Below are positions 1,195 through 1,503 of a DNA stretch of 64,000 nt, piece by piece. The position numbers were made by a program, and so were the translations under genes. The notes beneath the pieces were generated by a model. It made no database searches and was not told the DNA's origin. It saw nothing but the letters and a program-made list of their open reading frames with translations. Origin of the DNA: an archaeon (GTDB lineage Archaea > Nanobdellota > Nanobdellia > Pacearchaeales > GW2011-AR1); NCBI GenBank assembly GCA_018651605.1, contig JABIDS010000013.1, positions 64,717 through 128,716 of the forward strand, in the 5' to 3' direction. Each line of letters begins with the position of its first letter. Positions within the stretch are counted from its first letter, which is position 1.

Positions 1195-1503
1195 GTCACC
1201 TTCCTAATTTTTCGATTTTAATAAAATTAAAATCTCTTACTAAAACGCTTTGCGTTTTAGGATGATGCAGTTGTTGTAGGGTTTACCTTTTTTGTTTAAT
1301 GTTGTTAGAAGGAAAAGAAGGTTTTTAAGTTTTGGTGGGGTTTGGTTGATGGTTTATTGGTTGGATGGTTGTTGTTCCACCCCTTCGGAAAGCCGTGCTT
1401 TGCACTTTCCCTTTCCGAACCGTTGCAGTCTTGAAATGTTGATGGGGGTTTAGTTTTTGAGAAGGAGGTTTTCTTAATGGTTATAGGTTTTTTATAGTAT
1501 AAT

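Follow-up and report, generated by a model that had tools for sequence, protein, structure and literature searches.

A lineage-restricted family of strand-oriented, intergenic hairpin repeats in a few DPANN archaea

Introduction

What are the three closely similar, C-rich hairpins that lie between the genes of a single 64,000-nucleotide stretch of archaeal DNA, and on which molecule would they act? DPANN archaea have minimal genomes, and dozens of structured repeats in their spacers are therefore unexpected. A preliminary description of this stretch (C23:64717-128716 of the source genome G000, also JABIDS010000013.1; referred to as the window) had proposed that the hairpin could act in trans as a small RNA, its CCACCUCC box mimicking the anti-Shine-Dalgarno (anti-SD) end of 16S rRNA and sequestering GGAGG sites. 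By examining the copies of this hairpin in the source genome and in its relatives, their covariation, their orientation and their turnover, we hypothesize instead that the hairpin (module A) is the terminal module of an intergenic repeat that is non-coding, mosaic and restricted by lineage, REP/BIME- or PATE-like and non-autonomous, a reading to which we give slightly better than even credence.

Results

The host genome and its strand asymmetry

The source genome, G000, comprises 1.0 Mb in 24 contigs with 32.5% GC, and its MAG is about 84% complete; it and the related MAG described below, G061, are both incomplete. The window codes for ribosomal protein S24e (38646-39167, minus strand) and an Rpb7-like RpoE, which mark the genome as archaeal. 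Genes in G000 were called as longest open reading frames; a codon-usage gene caller is unreliable on minus-strand genes because of the strand skew. The plus strand of the window shows an extreme GC skew of 0.4-0.55. On contig C12 (110 kb), by comparison, 73% of genes lie on the plus strand and yet the skew is negative in every 10-kb interval, so that the skew cannot stem from coding alone: it is a property of the strand (0.3-0.5; C12 versus C23), decoupled from gene orientation. Most genes of C12 would then sit on the C-rich, presumed lagging strand. At C14:6207-6375, the 3' end of a tRNA gene recurs as a duplicate (AATCCGGGTGGGGCTA) about 100 nt downstream of the gene, an arrangement that resembles the trace left by integrative elements; a contig from a relative, L290, has the same tRNA and lacks the duplicate.

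Three copies of module A in the window

R1, a covariance model that covers box and hairpin and was derived from seven copies of equal length, places module A at 1372-1421 (+), 38521-38569 (+) and 33127-33175 (-). The window contains three instances of the core AAAGCCG-N8-11-CTTTCCCTTT (0.00 expected; none in 100 shuffles). The three copies, two forward and one inverted, are thus present as first described, with no copy expected by chance, and the stem and mini-hairpin sequences quoted at that time are correct. Folded by itself, each copy is predicted to form an outer stem (8-9 bp), a CC bulge of 2 nt on the 5' side, a mini-hairpin of 3-4 bp, a 5-nt UUUCC internal loop on the 3' side and the closing stem, with the C-rich 5' box unpaired. 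The features are as follows.

1375-1383, plus: copy 1, C-rich 5' box TTCCACCCC, marking the repeat's left boundary
1384-1419, plus: copy 1, hairpin (70.8 bits; -13.9 kcal/mol, z -2.8)
1384-1392, plus: copy 1, 5' arm TTCGGAAAG, followed by the CC bulge at 1393-1394
1395-1405, plus: copy 1, mini-hairpin GTGC-TTT-GCAC, followed by the TTTCC loop at 1406-1410
1411-1419, plus: copy 1, 3' arm CTTTCCGAA
1420-1473, plus: copy 1, T/G-rich module B GTTGCAGTCTTGAAATGTTGATGGGGGTTTAGTTTTTGAGAAGGAGGTTTTC (nhmmer match C23:66077-66189, window 1361-1473)
38522-38566, plus: copy 2, box and hairpin (45.7 bits; -11.9 kcal/mol, z -3.3)
38522-38533, plus: copy 2, box TTTTCACCACCT, followed by the 5' arm GCGAAAAG at 38534-38541 and CC
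38544-38553, plus: copy 2, mini-hairpin GTC-TGTC-GAC, followed by the TTTCC loop and the 3' arm CTTTTCGC at 38559-38566
38567-38619, plus: copy 2, module B, ending 27 nt short of the stop codon of the convergent S24e gene
33130-33173, minus: copy 3, inverted (44.7 bits; -11.1 kcal/mol, z -3.0)
33173-33163, minus: copy 3, box TTTCCACCTCC, followed by the 5' arm GCAGAAAG at 33162-33155 and CC
33152-33143, minus: copy 3, mini-hairpin GGT-TGTC-ACC, followed by the TTTCC loop and the 3' arm CTTTCTGC at 33137-33130
32973-33011, plus: E hairpin, GC-rich and inverted (GTCGCTCTCGCGGACGGCTTTCGCCAGTCCGCTCCGCTG), at the left end of the copy 3 composite
33012-33129, plus: interior of the copy 3 composite, a forward module B (TTGAATCTTGAAATCTATTTTATTTTTTTAGATGAGTTTTTTTTTGGTTTGTTAG) and a C/D-like G/T-rich spacer (alignment comparison)

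Copy 3 is the right end of a composite, with its box facing outward; the inverted E hairpin at the other end begins 17 nt past the stop of the gene at 32168-32956. Copies 1 and 3 are identical in other assemblies of this strain, and contigs from other samples are either identical or differ by three SNPs, all of them outside module A. Searches against Rfam returned nothing at the gathering threshold within the window; with the cut-off relaxed to E<=10, two loci were still empty and the third gave two matches outside module A, both far below threshold (Hairpin ribozyme, 12.9 bits, E 6.4; GHRLOS, 8.9 bits, E 9.9).

Two further observations concern the neighbourhood of the copies. In the near-identical strain L293, a TGA-to-GGA change at window 32954-32956 removes the stop of the TP_methylase-family gene, and the protein extends by 22 residues through the inverted E hairpin (284 versus 262 aa). 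At 1465-1496, between module B of copy 1 and the gene at 1537-1941, a 6-codon open reading frame (ATG GTT ATA GGT TTT TTA TAG) begins 8 nt past a GGAGG; this is probably due to chance.

A modular repeat family confined to a few lineages

Combining nhmmer with R1, 43 copies of module A were found in G000, each a two-helix hairpin of 36-42 nt; no copy lies within a credible open reading frame, in G000 or in G061. (A coding role was considered and rejected, as loop lengths vary by single bases.) A T/G-rich module B, (G)TCTTGAAA..TTGTTAGAGGGTTTATTTTATTCAGAGGAGTTTTC, directly follows module A in 30 of 42 G000 copies, and further on there are often modules C (tandems of TTGGTTGTTATGAG), D and E, the last being GC-rich hairpins. 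Each of the five inverted G000 copies closes a composite on its right while the interior keeps the forward orientation, and three of these composites open with an inverted E hairpin. Because inverted copies close composites with forward interiors, units can in general be written as [A or inverted E]-B-C-D-[E or inverted A], and the C-rich box always faces away from the interior; composites that both begin with A and end with inverted A are few (for example, C2:19780-20013).

Some copies are truncated, and others have further modules nested inside them. Shortened fragments of box and arm lie upstream of full copies. A double-hairpin module of about 60 nt (CAGAGAATC-NNN-GATTCTCTG with a second hairpin) sits precisely within the mini-hairpin loop in no fewer than 10 G061 copies (for example, C33:6718-6816) and in two G000 copies (C18:93833-93926 and C12:22101-22199), and the same module is inserted after the TTCAGAG of module B at G000 C19:14763, C18:31697 and C19:12236. 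A 57-nt insert (TGGCTCCTAAGCCTGCTCGTTATTCTATTTTAAAATAGAACTTCGCAAACTTACTCG) separates the TTTTCC loop from the 3' arm in three copies (G000 C19:22002-22110, C4:47800-47900 and C18:19520-19580). At G000 C2:6150-6350, on the minus strand, at least five tandem units of about 17 nt (GTTATTGGGTTGTTAGGA), an expanded module C, lie past one A-B unit.

A pattern scan of species genomes identified a second carrier, the Woesearchaeota MAG CAYNOY01 (G061), with 73-74 copies and with coding DNA 72-80% identical to that of G000. The R1 search gave no match among 36 species of the same genus, and among 24 species of the same order nothing but one weak match of 26.9 bits (G055). Scanning of metagenomes added contigs of the G061 population and a single contig, L290, from a third organism (about 80% identity to G000), with a copy scoring 64.5 bits; a single, partial match of 13.9 bits on a viral contig was judged to be chance. 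The family is lineage-restricted, occurring in a few DPANN archaea.

Compensatory changes in both helices

RNAalifold returned no structure on a plain MAFFT alignment of the copies, because differences in loop length and one-base differences in register misalign the arms. Among the G000 copies, 91.1% of cells are paired and eight of 12 pairs have double changes, a result matched in 0 of 500 shuffles, while slid controls are 43-61% paired. The copies from G061 and L290 form an independent set, none of them having been used to build R1, and they give 95.4% paired cells with double changes in nine of 12 pairs (69 cells; 0 of 500 shuffles; slid controls 54-68%). Pairing each 5' arm with the 3' arms of other copies lowers complementarity in both helices: 7.18 of 8 pairs are observed in the outer stem versus 6.49±0.05 in the permutation, and 2.90 of 3 pairs in the mini-hairpin versus 1.90±0.11. 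Stem complementarity is thus kept across the added genomic copies (43 in G000, 74 in G061) by compensatory changes, so that the structural part of the preliminary description survives the refutation that it had set itself and is much strengthened. It needs refining for the two outermost pairs of the stem, which are often open genome-wide (C.U plus G.U in about 30% of copies).

Several arm types recur in both genomes (GCGGAAAG/CTTTCCGC, GCGAAAAG/CTTTTCGC, GCAGAAAG/CTTTCTGC and GCGAAAAT/ATTTTCGC), so that subfamilies are common to the two; GCGAAAGG/CCTTTCGC is found in G061 and GCAGAGAG/CTCTCTGC once in G000. Box, unpaired CC and TTT(C/T)C loop vary least among the copies, and the stems vary more. 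Conservation among the copies sets in about 11-12 nt before the stem, and the flank upstream of the box holds no conserved motif (at most 0.6 bit at most positions, 0.9 at one). The box was first read as a CCACC motif; it is indeed C-rich, but genome-wide its motif is TTT-CC-N-CC-N-CC, the two N positions carrying about 0.1-0.6 bit. The copies preserve the shape of the hairpin, the sequences of its bulge and loop, and the CC periodicity within the box. Mismatches of the G.T and A.C kinds are equally rare in the core stem (16 versus 12), and these counts therefore favour neither RNA nor single-stranded DNA as the level at which the hairpin would act. A pairing of the box with a downstream GGAG segment was also considered and rejected as inconsistent across copies.

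The box and the translation signals of the host

The resemblance of the box to the anti-SD sequence was the basis of the small-RNA model, and it has something to commend it: some copies carry CCACCTCC or CCTCCTCC, the box is predicted to be unpaired, and SD-like motifs are used by operon-internal genes (n=140; 39% versus 14% in the control). Across the family the resemblance dissolves, since CCTCC occurs in 45 of 103 boxes (44%) and CACCTCC in five of 103 (5%), and the N positions are free. The likeness would accordingly be a by-product of a (CCN)3 tract that spells the anti-SD sequence only sometimes. The 3' end of the host's own 16S rRNA gene, which the box would have to match, is outside the G000 assembly (only the 5' half, model positions 4-828, is present at C6:44-854, at a contig end), and the G061 assembly is without any 16S.

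The translation signals also fit this model poorly. The SD core is found at -17 to -5 of first genes (n=509) in 10% of cases versus 8% in the control, and a TATA-like motif at -33 to -21 in 45% versus 13%; start sites in G000 typically have A-rich positions at -33/-32 and TTTATA at -29 (for example, window 33225-33263). By these signals, the organism is mostly leaderless, with SD use limited to operon-internal genes. On copy 3, the inverted GGAGGTGG followed by ATG does exist as was reported, but it opens only a 6-codon frame, and the gene that follows starts 70-90 nt beyond it. No conserved TATA/BRE or other promoter-like signal lies upstream of the box. (Module B as a promoter was rejected, as it does not fit the promoter layout of the genome.) With leaderless first genes, a box lacking a conserved promoter, and some 40-70 scattered, variable copies oriented by the G-rich DNA strand, quite unlike one regulatory RNA, the SD-sequestering model is very improbable.

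Orientation follows the DNA strand

Copies lie on the locally G-rich strand in 37 of 42 cases in G000 and in 62 of 69 in G061 (one-sided binomial, ~2e-7 and ~2e-12, respectively). On general grounds, we assume this strand to be the lagging-strand template in this fragmented assembly. A co-oriented gene lies upstream of only about half of the copies, and 15 of 41 (G000) and 20 of 63 (G061) lie between two genes of the opposite strand, that is, antisense to both neighbours. On C12, all four copies are on the minus strand, opposing most genes. Orientation follows the G-rich strand, as defined by 10-kb skew, and not the neighbouring genes. The copies are spread unevenly: 12 lie on C18 and six on C19, regions syntenic with the copy-rich G061 C1, C10 and C28, and there are none on the 129-kb C20 or the 55-kb C11.

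These patterns bear on the possibility that the repeat acts as RNA in cis, hairpin and T-rich module B forming a 3'-end, terminator or insulator cassette on the G-rich strand, with copies selected per locus. Where the upstream gene is co-oriented, the box begins 2-38 nt past its stop in most cases, but half of the copies lack such a gene and orientation tracks skew rather than genes; module B contains runs of T, but a run of at least five T already precedes the hairpin in 19 of 48 co-oriented cases; and convergent spacers are enriched in G000 (37% versus a background of 14%), but only weakly so in G061 (21% versus 14%). A C-rich hairpin persists although the strand has only about 12% C, and some sites are filled in both genomes; against this, two long contigs are free of copies and 36 congeneric genomes are without the family. 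Such a role is possible at some loci, and as an account of the family as a whole we consider it unlikely, if worth keeping in mind.

The uneven distribution also bears on a third explanation, in which module A is a site bound by protein as double-stranded DNA, oriented with replication and serving chromosome architecture or replication. Some bacterial BIMEs bind gyrase or IHF. The strand bias and replication-scale orientation would suit such a site, as would the regional clustering that is kept across genomes (rich and empty regions alike) and the fact that the unpaired motifs (CC, TTTYC and box) are more invariant than the stems; the compensatory changes in both helices, however, favour an extruded hairpin, and a family so unevenly distributed and missing from close relatives is hard to reconcile with this role. 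We regard a duplex site as improbable.

Turnover between related genomes

At sites anchored on both flanks, G061 copies have a counterpart in G000 in six cases and none in 17, and G000 copies have one in G061 in four cases and none in 13; where a copy is missing, the gap can measure as little as 33-91 nt. Copy presence thus differs at about 75% of syntenic sites, and the sites occupied in both genomes mostly hold different subfamilies, a pattern more readily explained by repeated insertion or replacement than by vertical descent. Shared occupancy nevertheless exceeds that of random occupancy of spacers (about 25% of anchored sites versus about 7-12%), and a host function may therefore keep some copies in place. 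At an identity of only 72-80% between the two genomes, no target-site duplication (TSD) or precise empty site is definable.

Discussion

A multi-copy, intergenic, strand-locked family whose presence varies between related genomes is, in our reading, probably a non-autonomous mosaic repeat with module A as its terminal hairpin, behaving much as selfish repeats of the REP or MITE type do in bacteria. Hairpin and adjoining box would together be the structure that is recognised, on one strand and most likely in DNA that lies single-stranded on the lagging-strand template (the G-rich strand), and a copying or moving enzyme would act on it much as RAYT acts on REP/BIME and TnpA on the ends of IS200/IS605. 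Searches of G000 and G061, both incomplete MAGs, found neither a Y1/RAYT transposase (PF01797) nor TnpB (PF07282), with control genomes positive for both, and no multi-copy family of open reading frames is common to the two genomes. A Bro-N family was rejected as a shared partner, being multi-copy in G061 and absent from G000; in G061 it comprises five to six paralogues that are 55-82% identical (C1:4891-5781, C59:734-1612, C32:9746-10607, C68 and C60).

More tentatively, and with doubt outweighing confidence, the family could be an archaeal, RAYT-less counterpart of REP/BIME, with polarity-constrained A/E termini, the box outward, locked to the lagging-strand template. If so, it would follow either that DPANN archaea possess an unrecognised activity for copying or transposing single-stranded DNA, or that the hairpins serve the host in a way coupled to replication. 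A REP-like, strand-oriented hairpin family with no known transposase is a lead on how repeats are acquired or tolerated in small archaeal genomes, and may point to a new single-strand DNA enzyme. In practical terms, the family is worth masking in searches of these genomes for small RNAs, riboswitches and attenuators, since its genuine covariation otherwise yields false calls of regulatory RNA, the anti-SD reading being one example.

By the defining features of each, module A lies outside REP/BIME, IS200/IS605 and MITEs: it has no GTAG, no RAYT or TnpA was found in the two incomplete MAGs, most copies have no terminal inverted repeats (TIR), and no TSD was seen. Among mosaic repeats, pneumococcal BOX and the Correia elements of Neisseria offer a comparison, and module A shares with these and with MITEs its nested insertions and modular build. 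Most of its copies, unlike MITEs, are without terminal inverted repeats (the few A...inverted-A composites have them); no TSD was seen between genomes 72-80% identical, no related autonomous IS was found, and the strand bias is extreme. Like MITEs, the repeat is short, non-coding, intergenic, taxon-restricted and variably present, and confinement to a genus or species is usual among prokaryotic MITEs (PMC11602168).

The likeness to the ends of IS200/IS605 and to PATEs concerns the strand: sub-terminal hairpins stand in place of terminal inverted repeats, the two ends of the repeat carry different hairpins (A and E), and the strong orientation bias is consistent with an active strand on the lagging-strand template, as assumed here (PMC5027513, PMC6006769). 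An orientation bias toward the lagging-strand template is a hallmark of single-strand transposons (PMC5027513, PMC6006769). Unlike those elements, the family comes with neither TnpA nor TnpB found in G000 or G061 (both incomplete), and the end modules of the repeat are exchangeable, with an inverted E at the left or an inverted A at the right, around an interior that stays forward. To our knowledge, IS200/IS605 derivatives do not swap end modules in this way. Transposition of the 'peel and paste' type, as in IS200/IS605, places the element 3' of a fixed tetra- or pentanucleotide target and produces no target duplication.

REP sequences are imperfect palindromes with a conserved motif 5' of the foot, a required stem irregularity and a variable but complementary stem, arranged in mosaic arrays (PMC3333891). 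They are extragenic, highly repeated and 30-40 nt long. Module A differs from REP/BIME in that its 5' motif is TTT-CC-N-CC-N-CC and not GTAG, its host is archaeal (DPANN) with no RAYT or other Y1 gene found in two incomplete MAGs, about 88-90% of its copies have one orientation in place of inverted REP/iREP pairs, and its hairpin has two helices with an asymmetric internal loop. It is nonetheless like REP/BIME in being an extragenic imperfect palindrome in the 35-45-nt range (36-42 nt) with tens to hundreds of copies, in its short conserved motif directly 5' of the hairpin foot, in a conserved stem irregularity (the bulge) within a stem whose bases vary and remain complementary, and in its combination with linker modules in mosaic arrays. 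In form, then, REP/BIME is the closest counterpart of the module A family among the known systems.
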